DNA from: Faecalibaculum rodentium
GTDB taxonomy: Bacteria > Bacillota_I > Bacilli_A > Erysipelotrichales > Erysipelotrichaceae
DNA: 24,000 bases
Reading direction: 5' to 3'
NCBI RefSeq assembly: GCF_001564455.1
Contig: NZ_CP011391.1
Location: forward strand, 2,091,391 to 2,115,390
In this document: positions 5,859 to 20,501 of the stretch, one piece after another
How positions within the stretch are numbered: the stretch's first letter is position 1
How the letters are laid out: each line of letters starts with the position of its first letter
Position numbers and translations under genes: made by a program
Notes under the pieces: model-generated
Told to the model about the DNA's origin: nothing
Seen by the model: the letters and a program-made list of their open reading frames with translations, nothing else
Databases searched by the model: none

Positions 5859-6954
5859 CTAAGGCACTAAAGGCTTGAATATCCGGATTTTTCTTAGTAG
5901 ATTGATTAATAAGATAGAAATAAAAATAATTAACCAAGGACCAATGAGTCGCCACCAAATTGACGTTTGACTGATGTCCATGAAATGCAATAAACCTAGA
6001 AGAACTAGCTGATGAAGTAAATAGATACCAAAAGTATATGGCCTGAACCATTCAGAAAATCTAATAATTGCTAATTGAATTCTATTTTTTCTATTTTGGC
6101 ACTTGTTATAGATCTGTCGAATCAGTATAAAAACAGCAATAGACTGAAGATAGCAAGGGAGATTGTAATAGCCTTTGAAAGTCTCTACAATGTGATTCGC
6201 ATTTATTGATAAGTAGTAAGTTGGAATTAGTTGCATAATAAACCCTATTGTACCCAATATATAAAGTACAATTCTTGTTCTTTTTCTTATGCTGTAATTA
6301 CCAATTAAATATCCTATTATAAAATATAGATAATAGTTTGCAGATACAGGCATCAACTGAGATACAGAGATTTCAGAAAAAATGTATTACAAATAAATAC
6401 AGCTACAACATTCAGCAAGAATCCCAAAACTGCAAGATATTCAAAAACATGCTTCCTGGATGCATTGGATATATTGGAGAATAACGGAACTGTTATGCAG
6501 ATAGTAAAATAAGGAATGAAAAACCAATATACACTCACTAAGTTTCCATTAATTAGACCATCAATTATTACAGGGAAAGTAATTTCTAAGAGAGGAAACC
6601 ATTCTAATACTATACTTTGATAATAAACGCCTAATACACTCCAAAAAAAATAAGGAATTAATACTTTCATTGCCCGATTCCTCAAGAATCTCTTTGTTCC
6701 ATTCCTTTCTATACTTGGAATCAAAGTTATACCGGAAATCATAAAAAAATTGGAACAGCCCAATAGAGAACTGTTTCAATTATATTTGCTGTCATCCAAT
6801 ATCGAGCTTTCGGATCAAAATCCCAGAAGCATGTATTCACATGCAGATATACAACAGCTATAGCAGCTGCTACACTTAAAAAATCCACAGTCTTATCAAA
6901 ATTTGTGAGGTGTTGGTTCAGCATCTTATCCTTATAATATTCCATAAAAATCAC
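5859..6954 (-). pseudogene. Acyltransferase family 3 (O-acyl/acetyltransferase) gene split into three frames
   Basis: Fragments 6954..6739, 6763..6353 and 6356..5859 (71+136+165 aa) together make one typical 10-TM acyltransferase_3 protein of about 370 aa. Adding one T at the A7/T7 run (6743..6749) restores the conserved AVPIFFMISGITL. Adding one T at the A6/T6 run (6377..6382) joins the last two pieces as ..NTFFSEISVSQLMPVSANYY... Confidence 0.7.
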
Positions 6955-14060: not shown

Positions 14061-14612
14061 TTATCCCAGTAGTGTATCGATCTGCCCTTCGAGCATTTCC
14101 TTCACACCCGGTGTCTTCATGACATCATCGCTGCCCCAGCTTTCCGGAGACAGGGCAATGCCTTCAGAACTGATCACCGTCATGCCCATGAACTTGCAAA
14201 GCAGAGACAGGTTTTTCCTTACGCCAAAGCCTGCAGCCCTGCCACCGGCGGTTGTCAGCAGCACTTTTCGGCCATAGACCGCTGTATCCGATTTATCCGC
14301 CCCGGGCTTCAGCCCCCGGGACAGCCAGTCCAGCAGGTTCTTTTCTCCGCCGGGAATCTGCCCGTTATATTCCGGGGAAAAGATCCAGATCACATTGCAG
14401 CCCATGACCTCATCCCGGACTTTCTGCACAGCTTCCGGTGTCGGGAACTCGTCATCCTGACTGAAAAACGGCACATCGAGCCACTCGATCATTTCCACCT
14501 TCTGCCCCTTTTCCTCCAGCATGGTTCTCGCAAGACTGGCCAGCTGTCTGTTGAAGCTGTTCTTTCTCCTGCTGCCCACCAGCAGCCCGATTGTATCGGT
14601 TTCATTGTTCAT
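14061..14612 (-). CDS. NAD(P)H-dependent FMN reductase family oxidoreductase
   Basis: The ATG at 14612 is preceded by AGGAGGAA; the track start at 14741 adds 43 unlikely residues. IGLLVGSRRKNSFNRQLA and IWIFSPEYNGQIPGGEKNLLDWLSR are typical of the FMN_red family. Confidence 0.8.
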   Translation of the reverse strand: MNNETDTIGLLVGSRRKNSFNRQLASLARTMLEEKGQKVEMIEWLDVPFFSQDDEFPTPEAVQKVRDEVMGCNVIWIFSPEYNGQIPGGEKNLLDWLSRGLKPGADKSDTAVYGRKVLLTTAGGRAAGFGVRKNLSLLCKFMGMTVISSEGIALSPESWGSDDVMKTPGVKEMLEGQIDTLLG

Positions 14613-14831: not shown

Positions 14832-14880
14832 CACAAAAAGCAGCGGCTGCCCCCTGCCCGGGAGAAACCACTGCTTTTGT
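14832..14880 (-). terminator. Rho-independent terminator after the aldolase gene
   Basis: On the minus strand, AAAAGCAGTGGTTTCTCCCGGGCAGGGGGCAGCCGCTGCTTTTTGTG. The AGCAGTGG/CCGCTGCT stem (one G-U) has a GC-rich interior and a T-run, and lies 25 nt after the stop at 14905. Confidence 0.6.
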
Positions 14881-14904: not shown

Positions 14905-15609
14905 TTATTCCTCTGTCAGCTTGTCTTCGATGTCTTCACTTTCATCGAACAGAGTATCCCGCATATAGGCGCGGTTCCAGTTCACACAGAACTCACCTAC
15001 GGCAATGCGCGTGGCCGGGTGGTTGATCATTTCATAGACCACATCCGCAGGCACTGTCACGGCTCCAATGCCGTTTTCAATCAGCTCGCTGACCTGGCCC
15101 ACGTTTTTGAAGCTCGCCGCAATCACCTTGGAATCCAGACCGTTTTCCTTGATCATCCGGTTCAGCTTCAGGACCTCGGCAACGCCGTCACCATAGTTGC
15201 ACATCCGGTTGGTATAGGGAGCCAGGTAGTTGGCACCGTTCTGCGCTGCCAGGAATCCCTGTGCAGGGGTGTAAATGGCTGTGGCCAGAGTCTTGATGCC
15301 TTCCTTGCGGCACTGTTTCAGAGCCTTGAGACCGTCACGAGAAACCGGGATCTTCACATACATGTTTTCCGGGCGCATGGCGCTGATCTTCCGGGCTTCG
15401 TCCATGATGCCTTCATAGTCTGTCTTGACGACCTGCACGAAGAGCTTCTGCTCCGGGGACAGGATGGAAATGATTTCCGGCAGCACATCCTCGGGCATCC
15501 GCCCGCTTTTTGTCAGGATCGTGGGGTTGGTGGTGACACCGGCGACTGTGATCAGTTCATTGAGATCGCGAATGCGTGCAACATCGGCTGTATCCAGCAT
15601 GAATTCCAT
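14905..15609 (-). CDS. fsa: Fructose-6-phosphate aldolase-type member of the transaldolase family (class I aldolase)
   Basis: 234 aa, collinear with E. coli FsaA as I recall it (MEFMLDTADV.., AGVTTNPT, VKIPV, ASFKN). It carries Gln in LFVQV and Tyr in APYTNR. These residues distinguish FSA-type aldolases (Q59/Y131) from true transaldolases (Glu/Phe). AAGGAGGAA RBS. Confidence 0.8.
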   Translation of the reverse strand: MEFMLDTADVARIRDLNELITVAGVTTNPTILTKSGRMPEDVLPEIISILSPEQKLFVQVVKTDYEGIMDEARKISAMRPENMYVKIPVSRDGLKALKQCRKEGIKTLATAIYTPAQGFLAAQNGANYLAPYTNRMCNYGDGVAEVLKLNRMIKENGLDSKVIAASFKNVGQVSELIENGIGAVTVPADVVYEMINHPATRIAVGEFCVNWNRAYMRDTLFDESEDIEDKLTEE

Positions 15610-15670
15610 AAGAAGTTCCTCCTTGTACCTTGTCTGTTCTATGTGATTTATCGTATCTGCCAGATCCGGG

Positions 15671-16657
15671 TCACTCCTCGATGAGGTTCATGACACCGTT
15701 GTCACTGGCAGTTTGTCTGAATGCGTTCATTTCATCCCCAGTGAACATGGGATGAGGCGGCAGGCTGTAGTCCTGTCCCGTCATTTCGTATTTCGCCGAC
15801 GCAAGCGGGTTGTAGTTGAGCAGCTCATACTTGACGCCGGGGTAATGGCCCGAGATCCACCGGGCGATGCCGCCGATGTTTTCCTTCGTGGCAGTATATC
15901 CCGGAATCAGCGGGGTGCGGATGATGACCTTGTCCCTGTGCTCCGGGGAATCCAGGAGCCAGGCAATGTTTTCCAGGATCTGGGTGTTGTCCCGCCCTGT
16001 GGCGTGTCTGTGCCCTGCCGGATCCAGGATCTTGATGTCGGCGAAGATCCGGTCAAGGTAGGGGGCACAGGCCTTCACCAGGGTCGGGTCGGCGAAGAAA
16101 CTCGATTCAATCGCGGTGTGAAATCCCTCGGCTTTGCATCGCTTCAGGATATCCTCCAGGAAGTGTCCTTGGAGAAAAGGCTCGCCACCGGAGAACGTCA
16201 CGCCGCCGCCGCTCTTAAAGAATACCGCATCTTCCCGGATCTTTTCCATCAGGGTGTCCAGGTCATAGGGCGTGCTGTCGTAGCGGATCGCCGCCGCAGG
16301 ACAGGCATAGACGACTTCATCGAAATGCCCGGGGTACTGATGGTTCAGCACCGGTGCCCCGTCTTTCCATTCCAGCTGACCTGGTCTGGCAGCGGCTTTG
16401 CAGCGGCCGCAGTGAATGCACTGGTTTTTCAGATACACCGGCTGTCTGGCAGCCCTGAGCCCTTCGGGGTTCTGGCACCATTTGCAGCGAAGGGGACAGC
16501 CTTTGAAGAACACCGTCGTGCGGATCCCGTCTCCGTCATGCACGGCAAACCGCTTGATGTCAAACACCAGAGCCTTCCAGTGAGGCTGCAGGTGATGCCT
16601 TTCAGCTTCTCCCTGAATCTCGCAGGTGTCTGTCATCTGCCTTTCAGTTGTATTCAT
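15671..16657 (-). CDS. Glycyl-radical enzyme activating enzyme (radical SAM) with ferredoxin-like insert
   Basis: CPLRCKWCQNPE (CX3CX2C), extra Cys clusters CIHCGRCKAA / CPAAAI, and GGVTFSGGEP. The ATG at 16657 (MNTTERQ..) is preceded by GAGGAGGGAA; the track start at 16690 is less likely. Confidence 0.9.
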   Translation of the reverse strand: MNTTERQMTDTCEIQGEAERHHLQPHWKALVFDIKRFAVHDGDGIRTTVFFKGCPLRCKWCQNPEGLRAARQPVYLKNQCIHCGRCKAAARPGQLEWKDGAPVLNHQYPGHFDEVVYACPAAAIRYDSTPYDLDTLMEKIREDAVFFKSGGGVTFSGGEPFLQGHFLEDILKRCKAEGFHTAIESSFFADPTLVKACAPYLDRIFADIKILDPAGHRHATGRDNTQILENIAWLLDSPEHRDKVIIRTPLIPGYTATKENIGGIARWISGHYPGVKYELLNYNPLASAKYEMTGQDYSLPPHPMFTGDEMNAFRQTASDNGVMNLIEE

Positions 16658-16706
16658 GAAAGGTTCCCTCCTCTCTGCCTCCGGCCTCACCCCATCTGAC
16701 AGCGGT

Positions 16707-16734
16707 CCGGCTGCCCGGACTTCCGGCCAGCCGG
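16707..16734. other. GC-rich palindromic stem-loop between GRE and activase genes
   Basis: CCGGCTG-C-CCGGA-CT-TCCGG-C-CAGCCGG: 12 paired positions with one C-C mismatch and no following U-run. Confidence 0.5.
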
Positions 16735-16744
16735 TAAGGCCATA

Positions 16745-19093
16745 CTAGATATCCGCGTAGCTGGTCCGCTCGATGATTTCGTCCTGGAGCTTGCCGGCCA
16801 GTTCCGTAAAGTACGCAGTATAACCTGCAACCCGCACCGTCAGGGACTGGTGCCGCTCCGGATGGATCTGGGCATCGATCAGGTCCTCCCGGTTCACAAC
16901 ATTGAACTGAATATGGGGAATCTCCAGGTCCACGAACGCCCGCAGGAAGTGCTCGAACTTGTCCCGCCCTGTCTGAGTCCGGAAGAACTCCGGCAGGAAT
17001 TTCATGTTCAGCAGTCCGCCATTGGTTGTGAAGGAATCATCCATCCGGGAAACGGATTTCAGCACCGCCGTCGGTCCGGTCATGTCCCGGCCATATACCG
17101 GCGACATCCCGCCATCCGCCAGAGGCTCTTTCGCTTTCCGCCCATCGGCAGAGGCGCCGACATTTTCCCCCATCGGAACGTGAGCGCTGACGGTGTACAT
17201 TCCCGTGTGGTACGGGCCGCCGCGGTAGTTGGTGTAGTCCTTCATCCGCTCCCGGAAGTAGCCAGCCCACTTGGCCCCCAGGTCATCCACCCATTGGATG
17301 TCGTTGCCGTACTTCGGTGCCCGCTTCAGCAGCATCGTCTGCGTAATTTCATGACCCTCGAAGTTCTCCGCCAGAGCCTGCTTCAGCTCCTCGCGGGAAA
17401 TCCGCTTCTCATCGTAAACCAGTTCCTTGATCGCCGCCAGGGAATCCGCCAGGTTGGCCACCTGAATCATCTGGATCCCCGAGAGGTTGTACTTTGCGCC
17501 GCCCGCCGTGACATCCAGGCCCTTGTCCAGGCAGTCGTCAATGACCGCCGACAGGAAAGCCGTCGGCAGACAGTCCTGATGCGCCTTTTCCACCACCACT
17601 TCGGCTTTCATCATTTCATCAATGAAATGGTCGATGGTCTTCCGGAAGGCCTCCTCGAGTTCTTCAAAGGTTTCGAATTCCTCGATCCCCCCGAAATCCG
17701 GGCCAATCTGTTCGCCCGTCAGCAGGCACTTGCCGTGGTTCATCGCCAGCTCCAGGGCTTTGTTCAGATTGAACATCGCCGCATCGCTCCACCCCAGGTT
17801 GTTGCCGTGGGTTGTGAGCTCCACGCAGCCCACAATGGCGTAGTCCCGCGCATCTTTTTCCTCGATGCCCAGGTCCTGGACCATGGTGTGAATGATTGCC
17901 TCGTCATTGAAGAACTGCGGCATGCCGGAGCCCTTCGCCACGACCTGGATCGCATCCTGCAACAGTTCCCGGCTCGTGTTGCGGTTCAGCCGCACAGAGA
18001 GATTGGGCTGCGGCAGCCCCAGGTCGTACTGCGCCTTGAGGAGCAGCAGCGACAGGTCATTGTAGGTGTCGTTGCCCTCTTCGTCCACGCCGCCAATCGC
18101 GATATTGAACCCGATGGGGAACCCCGCGAAGTACTTCGCCGAGTGCTGGTTGCGCAGATAGACGATCTGGTTGAATTTCAGCCACAGCGCCTCGAGGATC
18201 TCCAGAGCTTTCTGTTCCGTGAGCCTGCCCTCCCGGATGTCTTTTTCATAATACGGCCAGAGGTACTGGTCCATGCGCCCGGGCGAGAAAGAAGAAGCGT
18301 TGGATTCCATGTGGAGGATCGTGAACAGGAACCAAAGAGACTGCACCGCTTCGTGGAAGGTCTGTGCCCCGCGGTCCGCAAGTGCCTCGCAGATATCCGC
18401 CAGATCCAGCAGATCATCCCGATAAGCTTCGTTCTCCGCCGCTGTTTTCTCCAGCAGCCGGGCATATCGCCGCATGAAGGTCCGGGCGCCTTCCATCACG
18501 AGAATCACCGCATCGTAGAACTCCGGGTTATCCGGGTGCTGTTCCTTCGCCTGCCGCGCTTTTTCCGCCAGCCCTGCTGGTCCAAGTTCCAGCCACAGCT
18601 TCGTATCCGGACAGATGTGTCCCTGTGCATGGTCCTTCTGGTTGATCTTCACGACCTTCGCCATAGCCGAAATTTCCGGACCATAGTTCTGTGAAATCAC
18701 ATCTTCCATGGACCGCCCGTGCCAATATGGATAGATTTCTTCCCGGAACTCCCGGATGTCTTCCTCACGCACCTGGAACTTGTCCTGGGGCCTGGTGGGC
18801 AGTGTCTCGAATTCCTCGTTGATCCATTTCAGACCCGATTCCGGGAACACCACACCCGCGCGGACGCCTTTGGTCCGGTTGCCGACGATGAGTTCCTCGG
18901 GCTGCACTGCAATTTCGAGTTCCTCCAGCGCGGCTTTCAGGGAAAGGGCACGCTTGAGTACCGTGGACTTGTCTTCGTTTTCCTTATAGACCCGGGTGAT
19001 GATTCGTGCCTGTTCAATGGAGGCATACCGGGGCTCCGCGAGCATTTTGTCTTTCAGAATGTCAATGCGTTCTGTTTTCTTCAAATCTTTCAT
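16745..19093 (-). CDS. Glycyl radical enzyme, 1,2-eliminase (dehydratase/lyase) class, PflD/YbiW-like
   Basis: 782 aa. The C-terminal glycyl radical motif is LTVRVAGYTAYF. The Cys loop AIVGCVELT (Cys-x-Glu) resembles diol/glycerol dehydratase-, CutC-, HypD- and YbiW-type enzymes rather than the PFL Cys-Cys. ESNASSFSPGRMDQYLWPYY and QPNLSVR resemble E. coli YbiW as I recall it. AAGGAG RBS. Confidence 0.9.
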   Translation of the reverse strand: MKDLKKTERIDILKDKMLAEPRYASIEQARIITRVYKENEDKSTVLKRALSLKAALEELEIAVQPEELIVGNRTKGVRAGVVFPESGLKWINEEFETLPTRPQDKFQVREEDIREFREEIYPYWHGRSMEDVISQNYGPEISAMAKVVKINQKDHAQGHICPDTKLWLELGPAGLAEKARQAKEQHPDNPEFYDAVILVMEGARTFMRRYARLLEKTAAENEAYRDDLLDLADICEALADRGAQTFHEAVQSLWFLFTILHMESNASSFSPGRMDQYLWPYYEKDIREGRLTEQKALEILEALWLKFNQIVYLRNQHSAKYFAGFPIGFNIAIGGVDEEGNDTYNDLSLLLLKAQYDLGLPQPNLSVRLNRNTSRELLQDAIQVVAKGSGMPQFFNDEAIIHTMVQDLGIEEKDARDYAIVGCVELTTHGNNLGWSDAAMFNLNKALELAMNHGKCLLTGEQIGPDFGGIEEFETFEELEEAFRKTIDHFIDEMMKAEVVVEKAHQDCLPTAFLSAVIDDCLDKGLDVTAGGAKYNLSGIQMIQVANLADSLAAIKELVYDEKRISREELKQALAENFEGHEITQTMLLKRAPKYGNDIQWVDDLGAKWAGYFRERMKDYTNYRGGPYHTGMYTVSAHVPMGENVGASADGRKAKEPLADGGMSPVYGRDMTGPTAVLKSVSRMDDSFTTNGGLLNMKFLPEFFRTQTGRDKFEHFLRAFVDLEIPHIQFNVVNREDLIDAQIHPERHQSLTVRVAGYTAYFTELAGKLQDEIIERTSYADI

Positions 19094-19123
19094 TGCGTGC
19101 TCCTTGTCTTGTTTACACTTACC

Positions 19124-19151
19124 AGTATACCGAAATAACTCTTGTTTTCAA
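19124..19151 (-). promoter_or_regulatory. Candidate sigma-A promoter for the GRE operon
   Basis: On the minus strand, TTGAAA (19151..19146), a 16-nt spacer, then TATACT (19129..19124). It lies about 30 nt upstream of the GRE ATG. Motif match only. Confidence 0.45.
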
Positions 19152-19345
19152 TTGTTTTATATTGTTTTTGCGAATAAACGAGACAGAACAGTCTTTCCTG
19201 CCGATGATGACAGGCAGCTGAAGGCGCGGCTGCAGCCGGGCATTCAGCACGCCGCCCTGGATGTGTGTTCCTGTTAATCTGGAAAATCCTGGGGATAGCG
19301 GTGCTCTGAAGATCGGTTGAAATAAAAAGGCAGCCAATAATCTGG

Positions 19346-19456
19346 ATTTGCGTGAGAAACGGTCTGTTATGGAGAGAGTTCAGGCTTTTCGTGAGAAAAT
19401 TGCGTGTTTTCGTGAGATTTATCGTGAGAAATCTCACGAAAATCTCAGGATTCACA
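19346..19456. repeat. Repeat module A: array of CGTGAGA half-sites ending in a 16-bp palindrome
   Basis: CGTGAGA occurs at 19351, 19390, 19411 and 19423. The palindrome CGTGAGA-AA-TCTCACG is at 19423..19438, followed by AAAATCTCAGGATTCACA. It aligns with module B apart from an internal insertion of about 20 bp. Confidence 0.75.
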
Positions 19457-19562
19457 GGAAAACCGGCTGTTTTGGGAAGAAAAAGAGGAGGATTCTCTGC
19501 TCAGAAGGTAATCATTAGTTGATATAGCAGAGAATAATATAAAATGAGTAATCCAGCAGTGA

Positions 19563-19654
19563 ATTTGCGTGAGATTTTTTCCTTTTCATGAGAAAAATGT
19601 CCGTTTTCGTGAGAATTATCGTGAGAAATCTCACGAAACTCTCAGGATTTCACA
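19563..19654. repeat. Repeat module B: second copy of the CGTGAGA half-site array plus 16-bp palindrome
   Basis: CGTGAGA occurs at 19568, 19608 and 19620, with the variant CATGAGA at 19587. An identical palindrome CGTGAGA-AA-TCTCACG is at 19620..19635, followed by AAACTCTCAGGATTTCACA. Confidence 0.75.
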
Positions 19655-19748
19655 CGATTTCCGGATTTCTCCATAGCCTCCTATCCAAAAAACTGCCGGT
19701 GAAGCCCTGTGTATTCCACAGCCTTCATCGGCAGTTTTATCATGGTTC

Positions 19749-20501
19749 TTACAATACCTCGGTGAGCTCCGCTGCAGCCTGCCGCTGGGTGGAACTGTCG
19801 CCGGTGATCAGGACATCGAAGTCCGAGACATGAGCGAAAATGAATGCACCGTCCTGGTTGAACTTGCTGCTTTCCGCAAACAGCACCGTCCGGCGGCTGG
19901 ACTCCATGACGGCTTTTTTCGTGAGTCCATCCTCGACGTTGTAGGTCATGACCGCATCCTTGTCGAGATTCACCCCCACGGCCCCCATGAAGGAGACCGC
20001 AAAATTGAATTCCCGGATCTGGCGCTGGGCGAGTCCCCCGACAAATCCGTCCCGTCCTTTGTTCAGCTGGCCGCCAATGAACAGCACCTGCCGGTTTTCA
20101 TCTGCGGCGAAAAGATCCAGGATCTGTGTCATATTCGTGACCACCGTGACATCGATGTTTTCCTGGATCATGAGCCGCGCCAGCTGCAGCGTGGTGCTCG
20201 ATATCCCCAGAAACACCAGGGATCCCGGCTCCATGAGCGACAGCGCTTTGCGGGCCATGGCAGTTTTTTCCTCCACGTTCTCAATCACCCGGTCCCGGGC
20301 CTTCATGATGTGGAAATTGCTGCGGACGCTCACAGCTCCGCCGTGGATGCGCCTGAGCTGTCCCTGTTTCTCCAGCGCTGTCAGGTCCTTGCGGATGCAG
20401 TCTTCTGTCACTTCGAATTCCCGTGCCAGGTCCTTCACCAGCACCTGCCGGGTGATGGCCAGCCGCCGCAGGATCTGCTCGTGGCGTTCGTTCTGCGTCA
20501 T
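19749..20501 (-). CDS. DeoR/GlpR-family transcriptional regulator
   Basis: 250 aa. The N-terminal winged HTH is ERHEQILRRLAITRQVLVKDLAREFEVTEDCIRKDLTALEKQGQLRRIHGGA, and the C-terminal domain is a DeoR-type sugar-phosphate-binding domain. The ATG overlaps the proC TGA as ATGA (20498..20501). Confidence 0.9.
   Translation of the reverse strand: MTQNERHEQILRRLAITRQVLVKDLAREFEVTEDCIRKDLTALEKQGQLRRIHGGAVSVRSNFHIMKARDRVIENVEEKTAMARKALSLMEPGSLVFLGISSTTLQLARLMIQENIDVTVVTNMTQILDLFAADENRQVLFIGGQLNKGRDGFVGGLAQRQIREFNFAVSFMGAVGVNLDKDAVMTYNVEDGLTKKAVMESSRRTVLFAESSKFNQDGAFIFAHVSDFDVLITGDSSTQRQAAAELTEVL

Follow-up and report, generated by a model that had tools for sequence, protein, structure and literature searches.

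A PflD-related glycyl radical enzyme operon of Faecalibaculum rodentium with a fructose-6-phosphate aldolase-type partner, predicted to open the ring of anhydrohexitol phosphates

The 24,000-nucleotide stretch of the Faecalibaculum rodentium genome analysed here (NZ_CP011391.1, positions 2,091,391 to 2,115,390; below, the window) carries on its minus strand, at positions 14905-19093, a three-gene operon for a glycyl radical enzyme (GRE), its activating radical S-adenosylmethionine (SAM) enzyme and a class I aldolase of the fructose-6-phosphate aldolase (FSA) type, a trio of open reading frames (ORFs) which the initial annotation had proposed and which was confirmed at these coordinates. The operon probably (at a rough probability of 0.7) encodes the version that F. 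rodentium, a bacterium of the mouse gut, has of radical 'anhydroglycolysis', an oxygen-sensitive route described only recently. In it the GRE would act as a ring-opening C-O lyase on 1,5-anhydromannitol-6-phosphate (AM6P) or something closely similar, and the aldolase would then cleave the product. The genome (a single contig of 2.54 Mb, 99.8% complete) and related loci show which genes the operon holds and where it begins and ends, the catalytic motifs of its products, the place of the GRE in the phylogeny and the partner genes conserved with it; from homology to PflD we infer the chemistry and the substrate of the GRE. The genes of the operon are:

16745..19093, minus strand: GRE of 782 aa, PflD-sister clade (Pfam, NCBIfam, PDB search, trees, motifs)
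15671..16657, minus strand: GRE-activating radical-SAM enzyme of 328 aa (TIGR02494, CxxxCxxC, ribosome-binding site (RBS) before ATG 16657)
14905..15609, minus strand: FSA-type class I aldolase of 234 aa (Pfam TAL_FSA, FSA catalytic residues)

The predicted pathway

YbiW is described to cleave the ring C-O bond of 1,5-anhydroglucitol-6-phosphate (AG6P) and PflD that of AM6P; their substrates enter through the phosphotransferase system (PTS), and the product 1-deoxy-fructose-6-phosphate is split by aldolases into glyceraldehyde-3-phosphate and hydroxyacetone (Ma et al., JACS 2024, doi 10.1021/jacs.4c07718, as summarised in PMC13450708, section 5.7, and PMC12441222, section 5.1). Current classification counts both enzymes among the GRE isomerases rather than the dehydratases. 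The initial annotation had pointed to work assigning such GREs a dehydratase activity on anhydrohexitol-6-phosphates with a subsequent aldolase reaction. That work exists and the aldolase step is borne out, but the term dehydratase is not, as the reaction is a ring-opening C-O isomerisation (PMC13450708, PMC12441222).

By analogy, the activase would use SAM to generate a radical on Gly757 of the GRE, which would move on to Cys423. The Cys423 thiyl would take a hydrogen from C2 of a 1,5-anhydrohexitol-6-phosphate, most likely the PflD substrate 1,5-anhydro-D-mannitol-6-phosphate, while Glu425 would deprotonate the C2 hydroxyl and the ring C-O bond would break to yield 1-deoxy-fructose-6-phosphate, which the FSA-type aldolase would convert to glyceraldehyde-3-phosphate and hydroxyacetone. 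With its three genes the operon would be self-contained and under DeoR control.

The glycyl radical enzyme is a sister of PflD

The GRE matches the Pfam families PFL-like (PF02901, 706 bits) and Gly_radical (PF01228, 96 bits), passes TIGR01774 (790 bits, cut-off 678) and contains in its translation both motifs that had been claimed for it, GCVE (Cys423, Glu425) and RVAGY (Gly757). Barrel, C-terminal glycyl-radical domain and Cys loop identify it by sequence as a GRE of the pyruvate formate-lyase (PFL)-like division. The best named NCBIfam model is the PflD equivalog NF007437 with 771 bits, and a phmmer search of the PDB placed two PflD structures on top (8yjo with 654 bits and the AM6P-bound 8id0 with 626 bits), ahead of glycerol dehydratase (GDH; 585), propanediol (PD) dehydratase (564), CutC (530), YbiW (460) and HypD (437 bits). 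By BLASTP the GRE shares 43% of its residues with E. coli PflD and 35% with YbiW, while PflD and YbiW are 37% identical to each other.

Public proteins 98-99% identical to the GRE are named "glycyl radical protein [Faecalibaculum rodentium]", and the generic annotation of its relatives is 'formate C-acetyltransferase'. The latter label would speak for a pyruvate formate-lyase, a reading which hardly deserves credence, as the PFL equivalog TIGR01255 is hit with 163 bits against a cut-off of 994 and the Cys loop presents a single Cys-x-Glu, not the Cys-Cys pair of PFL.

For phylogenetic placement, 1.84 billion cluster representatives and 151 genomes of the same bacterial family were searched, and trees were calculated with FastTree (168 sequences) and IQ-TREE (55 sequences, LG+G4, 1000 ultrafast bootstraps). 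The clade of the window GRE (clade B, 100/100) is in the IQ-TREE phylogeny sister to clade A (100/100), which consists of E. coli PflD and seven Erysipelotrichaceae proteins, with a joint support of 100/100; FastTree concurs with a joint support of 1.0 for A+B. YbiW, the GDH/PD-like clade and the PFL2 clade fall outside A+B, and the position of the GRE is also apart from HypD and CutC. By these trees PflD is the only characterised GRE with which the window GRE groups, as a sister and not nested in PflD. The phylogeny that had been suggested as a check on the label 'YbiW/PflD-like' returned no clustering with HypD, glycerol/propanediol dehydratase, CutC or PFL, and of the label itself the PflD half holds (sister clade at 100/100, 43% identity) but not the YbiW half (35%, another clade). 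Across the 151 family genomes, clades A and B do not co-occur in a single one.

Residues of the active site

Pocket positions were mapped from GDH via a HMMER alignment, with the numbering checked against His164, Cys433, Glu435 and Asp447; those other than His164 and Glu435 are taken as pocket positions after the GDH literature. His164 and Glu435 of GDH are catalytic (PMC13450708). The correspondences are:

GDH N156: window GRE N151
GDH H164: window GRE H159
GDH H281: window GRE S267
GDH S282: window GRE S268
GDH Y339: window GRE G328
GDH C433: window GRE C423
GDH E435: window GRE E425
GDH D447: window GRE D437
GDH Y640: window GRE Y633

At these nine first-shell positions the window GRE equals PflD throughout (9/9), and YbiW differs at four of the nine (H282, Y344, G456, S662). 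Motifs that clades A and B have in common, and that are seldom seen among the remaining 135 sequences, are R73, INQxDxxQGH (150-159), SNASS (264-268), G328, GCVEL, D437 and an LADGG insertion. Arg314 and Lys320, considered as phosphate-binding markers confined to PflD, clade B and YbiW, were rejected as uninformative because GDH carries both too.

The mapping also bears on whether the enzyme might be a glycerol or 1,2-diol dehydratase-type 1,2-eliminase, with an aldolase unrelated to its product. The B12-independent GDH (Clostridium butyricum, 1R8W/1R9D) and PD dehydratase (5I2A) share with it the GRE fold, the CxE loop and equivalents of His164 and Asp447 (His159 and Asp437 in the window GRE), and GDH 1r8w is, with its 585 bits, the third-best PDB match. 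Yet clade B is split from the GDH/PD clade in the tree, Ser267 and Gly328 stand, like their counterparts in PflD, where GDH has His281 and Tyr339, and the conserved neighbours include FSA but none of the genes that could serve a diol pathway (for an aldehyde dehydrogenase, a 1,3-propanediol dehydrogenase or a microcompartment). We would not expect a net 1,2-elimination and consider this reading very improbable.

Gene context and distribution of the relatives

Genes at related loci were called with a conservation-weighted ORF choice, and contexts were counted at 65 clade-B loci of at least 11 kb. The activase is adjacent in 62 of them, 47 have a DeoR homologue flanking the GRE, and FSA is present in 44 (within 6 kb at 41 of those 54 whose downstream DNA extends for 3 kb or more). 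A Gfo/Idh/MocA oxidoreductase occurs in 7/65 and a PTS cluster in 8/65, all of the latter in Clostridia. The 21 Erysipelotrichaceae clade-B loci all pair GRE and activase, with FSA in 14 and DeoR in 11; they hold no conserved PTS, kinase or transporter, and their other neighbours are unrelated housekeeping genes. Five genomes without FSA next to the clade-B GRE all encode an FSA-type gene elsewhere. The identical DeoR/GRE/activase/FSA layout, likewise without Frw genes, is found at the seven Erysipelotrichaceae clade-A loci.

A scan of named genomes traced clade B far beyond Erysipelotrichales, at 67-80% identity. Within this order, it includes Allobaculum, Ileibacterium, Dubosiella, Stoquefichus, Thomasclavelia, Catenibacterium and Solobacterium, and in Clostridia and Negativicutes Anaerostipes hadrus, A. 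hominis, Enterocloster lavalensis, [Clostridium] asparagiforme, C. beijerinckii, Peptacetobacter and Megamonas.

The PTS cluster of the Clostridia combines a PRD regulator with an EIIA2 domain, an EIIA2 protein, EIIC and EIIB, joined in some cases by HPr and EI. Its EIIC shares 46-52% identity with FrwC and its EIIB 61-69% with FrwB of E. coli, where pflD is surrounded by Frw PTS genes. The linkage to this PTS is the strongest independent evidence that clade B may use a PTS-delivered, phosphorylated substrate of the PflD type, and as clade-B members with and without the linkage do not differ at the pocket positions, it can be extended to F. rodentium.

Substrate preference and physiological role

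Several findings count against the assignment of AM6P ring opening to this operon. The 771 bits of the GRE on NF007437 stay under the cut-off of 1109, with E. coli PflD reaching 1725, an Erysipelotrichaceae PflD-clade protein 1117 and YbiW 579 bits, and the aldolase remains under all three NCBIfam FSA cut-offs (NF009296 218/306, NF009299 205/214, TIGR00875 196/246). The F. rodentium genome is without a Frw orthologue (best match 31-35% identity for EIIC and 42-49% for EIIB) and without a close GldA (best genome match 25% identical). At about ten positions by the Cys loop and on neighbouring strands clade B is, moreover, unlike PflD, each residue being conserved within its own clade:

PflD (clade A) S78: window GRE (clade B) F83
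PflD (clade A) Y326: window GRE (clade B) F329
PflD (clade A) T327: window GRE (clade B) N330
PflD (clade A) S423: window GRE (clade B) T427
PflD (clade A) I424: window GRE (clade B) T428
PflD (clade A) Y429: window GRE (clade B) L433
PflD (clade A) L431: window GRE (clade B) W435
PflD (clade A) H432: window GRE (clade B) S436
PflD (clade A) I434: window GRE (clade B) A438
PflD (clade A) P614: window GRE (clade B) T630
PflD (clade A) S616: window GRE (clade B) M632

The clade-B residues are invariant in 63 clade-B proteins, PTS-linked or not, with the exception of position 438, which is A or S, and two of them, F83 and N330, are the residues of YbiW. The preferred substrate could therefore differ from that of PflD. 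With the chemistry alike, the GRE would then act on AG6P or another anhydro- or deoxy-hexitol phosphate epimer, and FSA would still cleave a 1-deoxy-ketose phosphate. This alternative, though clearly the less probable, stays live because the clade-specific substitutions by the Cys loop and the Asp437 strand are invariant; the score under the PflD equivalog cut-off and the persistence of clades A and B as separate lineages in one bacterial family also point its way. On the other hand, the nine mapped first-shell positions are those of PflD and four of them are unlike YbiW, clade-B members are linked to true orthologues of FrwC and FrwB, the PTS of pflD, and F. rodentium already has a separate YbiW-clade GRE. 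Clades A and B are also mutually exclusive across genomes, as expected of equivalent enzymes. An AM6P-type substrate is accordingly the one we favour for the GRE.

With the E. coli PflD-PflC/FsaB system (frwCB-pflDC-frwD, ptsA-fsaB-gldA; PDB 8ID0, 8YJO) the operon shares a GRE of the sister clade with 43% identity, the PflD motifs and identical mapped first-shell residues, an activase from the same subfamily and, as partner, an aldolase of the FSA type, to which the Frw-type PTS linkage of Clostridia clade-B members can be added. It differs in the GRE score under the NCBIfam PflD cut-off, in the approximately ten clade-invariant substitutions near the Cys loop, in a DeoR-type regulator where E. 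coli has the AraC-type YijO, in the missing adjacent PTS of F. rodentium and other Erysipelotrichales, in the missing GldA orthologue of F. rodentium, and in the union of GRE, activase and aldolase in one operon. The E. coli YbiW-YbiY/FsaA system (PDB 8ID7) resembles it in a GRE and activase beside FSA, the lack of a neighbouring PTS and the CxE loop, and an identical product and aldolase step would be expected, whereas YbiW is of another clade with 35% identity, is unlike at 4/9 mapped first-shell positions and has a separate clade relative in F. rodentium.

It is also conceivable, if rather unlikely, that the PflD-sister clade has a substrate preference of its own, set by the roughly ten invariant substitutions close to the pocket, and that in Erysipelotrichales, where any dedicated PTS would have been lost, the operon serves mainly salvage or detoxification and not a growth pathway with its own uptake. 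If so, the operon would clear dead-end anhydrohexitol-6-phosphates that a general glucose/mannose PTS makes adventitiously from host- and diet-derived 1,5-anhydroglucitol or 1,5-anhydromannitol. Neither new chemistry nor a new type of system is put forward here; clade B is a distinct subfamily, sister to PflD, within the anhydroglycolysis system already published. It is widespread among the gut Firmicutes of mice and humans, where current annotation goes no further than "glycyl radical protein" or "formate C-acetyltransferase". That it travels with an FSA aldolase permits better annotation, and a set of candidate specificity residues is now defined for testing. As 1,5-anhydroglucitol is a clinical marker of glycaemia and its 6-phosphate is toxic to neutrophils (PMC12441222), gut bacteria that consume anhydro-sugars are of some medical interest.

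Activase and aldolase

The activase scores 268 bits on TIGR02494 (cut-off 174) and contains the CxxxCxxC motif (C65/C69/C72 in ORF numbering) plus a Cys-rich ferredoxin-like insert. Its open frame spans 15671-16690 and reaches a GTG at 16690, but the probable start is the ATG at 16657 behind a GGAGGG RBS.

The aldolase matches Pfam TAL_FSA with 149.5 bits, is 40-41% identical to E. coli FsaA/FsaB and is the sole TAL/FSA homologue in the F. rodentium genome. Gln59 and Tyr131 (FsaA numbering) form a pair that is diagnostic of FSA, transaldolase having Glu and Phe at these positions. The Gln/Tyr pair claimed for the aldolase, Q59 and Y132, is real, as it is invariant in the alignment with FsaA and FsaB, in which D6, Q59, K86 (the Schiff-base Lys), T110, Y132 and R135 correspond to D6, Q59, K85, T109, Y131 and R134 of FsaA. 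Relative to FsaA/FsaB, the protein of F. rodentium has a 14-residue acidic C-terminal extension.

Transcription unit and control region

GRE, activase and FSA constitute one discrete transcription unit between two strong predicted terminators, downstream of a DeoR regulator, and each of the three genes is preceded by an RBS of good quality. The surrounding features are:

19749..20501, minus strand: DeoR-family regulator (Pfam HTH_DeoR and DeoRC)
19690..19738, minus strand: predicted intrinsic terminator 3' of the DeoR gene (hairpin of -28.9 kcal/mol, z = -6.4, then a U tract)
19346..19654, minus strand: control region with two repeat modules of ~100 bp, each ending in the 18-bp palindrome TCGTGAGAAATCTCACGA
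19124..19151, minus strand: promoter-like TTGAAA-16-TATACT, ~30 nt 5' of the GRE start (sigma-70-like, 10/12 consensus matches; consensus match only)
14839..14875, minus strand: predicted intrinsic terminator 3' of the aldolase, operon end (hairpin of -29.4 kcal/mol, z = -4.7, then UUUUU)

The 650-bp spacer between deoR and the GRE gene contains two copies of the perfect palindrome, at 19422-19439 and 19619-19636 and 197 bp apart, with 0.01 exact copies expected by chance. The pair are likely candidate operators to which DeoR would bind. No further copy was found in a scan of the 2.54-Mb genome that allowed two mismatches, and this confinement to the spacer points to no co-regulated transporter. 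A 121-aa ORF at 19090-19455, in overlap with the GRE start, is probably not a gene and was discarded because it has no family match and is positioned in the repeat-rich leader. Past the operon follows an FMN reductase gene with its own RBS and an ATG at 14611, which is not conserved at related loci.

The deoR gene overlaps the upstream proC by 4 nt (start/stop), and the predicted terminator sets proC-deoR apart from the GRE operon. The vicinity of proC could suggest a HypD-like hydroxyproline dehydratase that acts together with its product, but as the only pyrroline-5-carboxylate reductase gene of the F. rodentium genome, proC is the housekeeping copy; it lies behind the terminator and is absent from other related loci. 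The GRE, furthermore, attains 588 of the 1100 bits required by the HypD equivalog NF043068, and the PDB search gave 437 bits for HypD versus 654 for PflD, and we give this possibility next to no weight.

Substrate uptake and other glycyl radical enzymes of F. rodentium

No PTS, kinase or sugar transporter is encoded in the window, where CorA is the sole transporter. The initial annotation was right in this, but the contrast it drew does not hold for all of E. coli, since the ybiW-ybiY/fsaA neighbourhood is without a PTS too. F. rodentium has PTS permease genes of the EIIC family (11) and of the mannose type (2), and the substrate presumably enters via one of these 13 non-dedicated permeases. 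Two candidates for a dedicated partner were rejected: the nearest EIIC, 23 kb off, belongs to a MupG/GntR cluster of the N-acetylmuramic acid type, and the best Frw-like PTS match, at C1:2201763-2210857, is grouped with a GH38 alpha-mannosidase. The latter locus comprises fructose-family EIIA, EIIB and EIIC, a divergent PRD regulator and the GH38 enzyme, and we take it to be akin to the MngA/MngB mannoside system of E. coli. A gene for a group II intron reverse transcriptase/maturase adjoins it.

Two further GREs are encoded in the genome, which has no canonical pyruvate formate-lyase. A second GRE operon, at C1:1245240-1249455, encodes an 835-aa YbiW-clade GRE (100/99) and an activase 3' of a 299-aa deoxyribose-phosphate aldolase (DeoC; 172 bits on TIGR00126, cut-off 117) with an N-terminal extension of ~76 residues. 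That a YbiW-type GRE is combined with an aldolase of the DeoC and not the FSA type suggests that the pathway is a variant one, whose product may be another deoxy-sugar phosphate. The third GRE (C1:1999483-2003683, 756 aa) is very divergent, with 282 bits for the best NCBIfam model and 91 bits on the PFL equivalog, and is accompanied by its own activase and another DeoR regulator.

Further observations

The Gfo/Idh/MocA oxidoreductase of clade-B loci, with ~325 aa, is encoded 3' of the activase or FSA at L085, L092, L124, L146, L151, L154 (12313-13293) and L159, and a homologue with 42% identity is encoded in F. rodentium at C1:1662038-1663033. The best PDB matches of the clade-B oxidoreductase are uncharacterised members and dihydrodiol dehydrogenase; 1,5-anhydro-D-fructose reductase belongs to its family too, but as the match to that enzyme is weak (~68 bits), it was not assigned a function.

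Clade-A and clade-B enzymes can also neighbour other GREs. On the metagenome contig ERZ16299706 NODE_2954 (L069, 1-14103), a clade-B GRE of 60% identity stands beside a second, divergent GRE of 761 aa, together with two activases, an AraC regulator, a 623-aa protein without a Pfam family and a sugar ABC transporter, an uptake logic that differs from that of the PTS-linked clade-B loci. In two Erysipelotrichaceae genomes (loci L056 1888-5065 and L059 3796-6949), a bona fide PflD-activase-FSA set lies less than 5 kb from a very divergent GRE of ~760 aa with its activase.

Elsewhere in the window, at 5859-6763 on the minus strand, two adjacent ORFs of 165 and 136 aa with a 4-nt overlap match consecutive halves of Acyl_transf_3 (51-175 and 188-324), which looks like a split or frameshifted acyltransferase in a polysaccharide locus.

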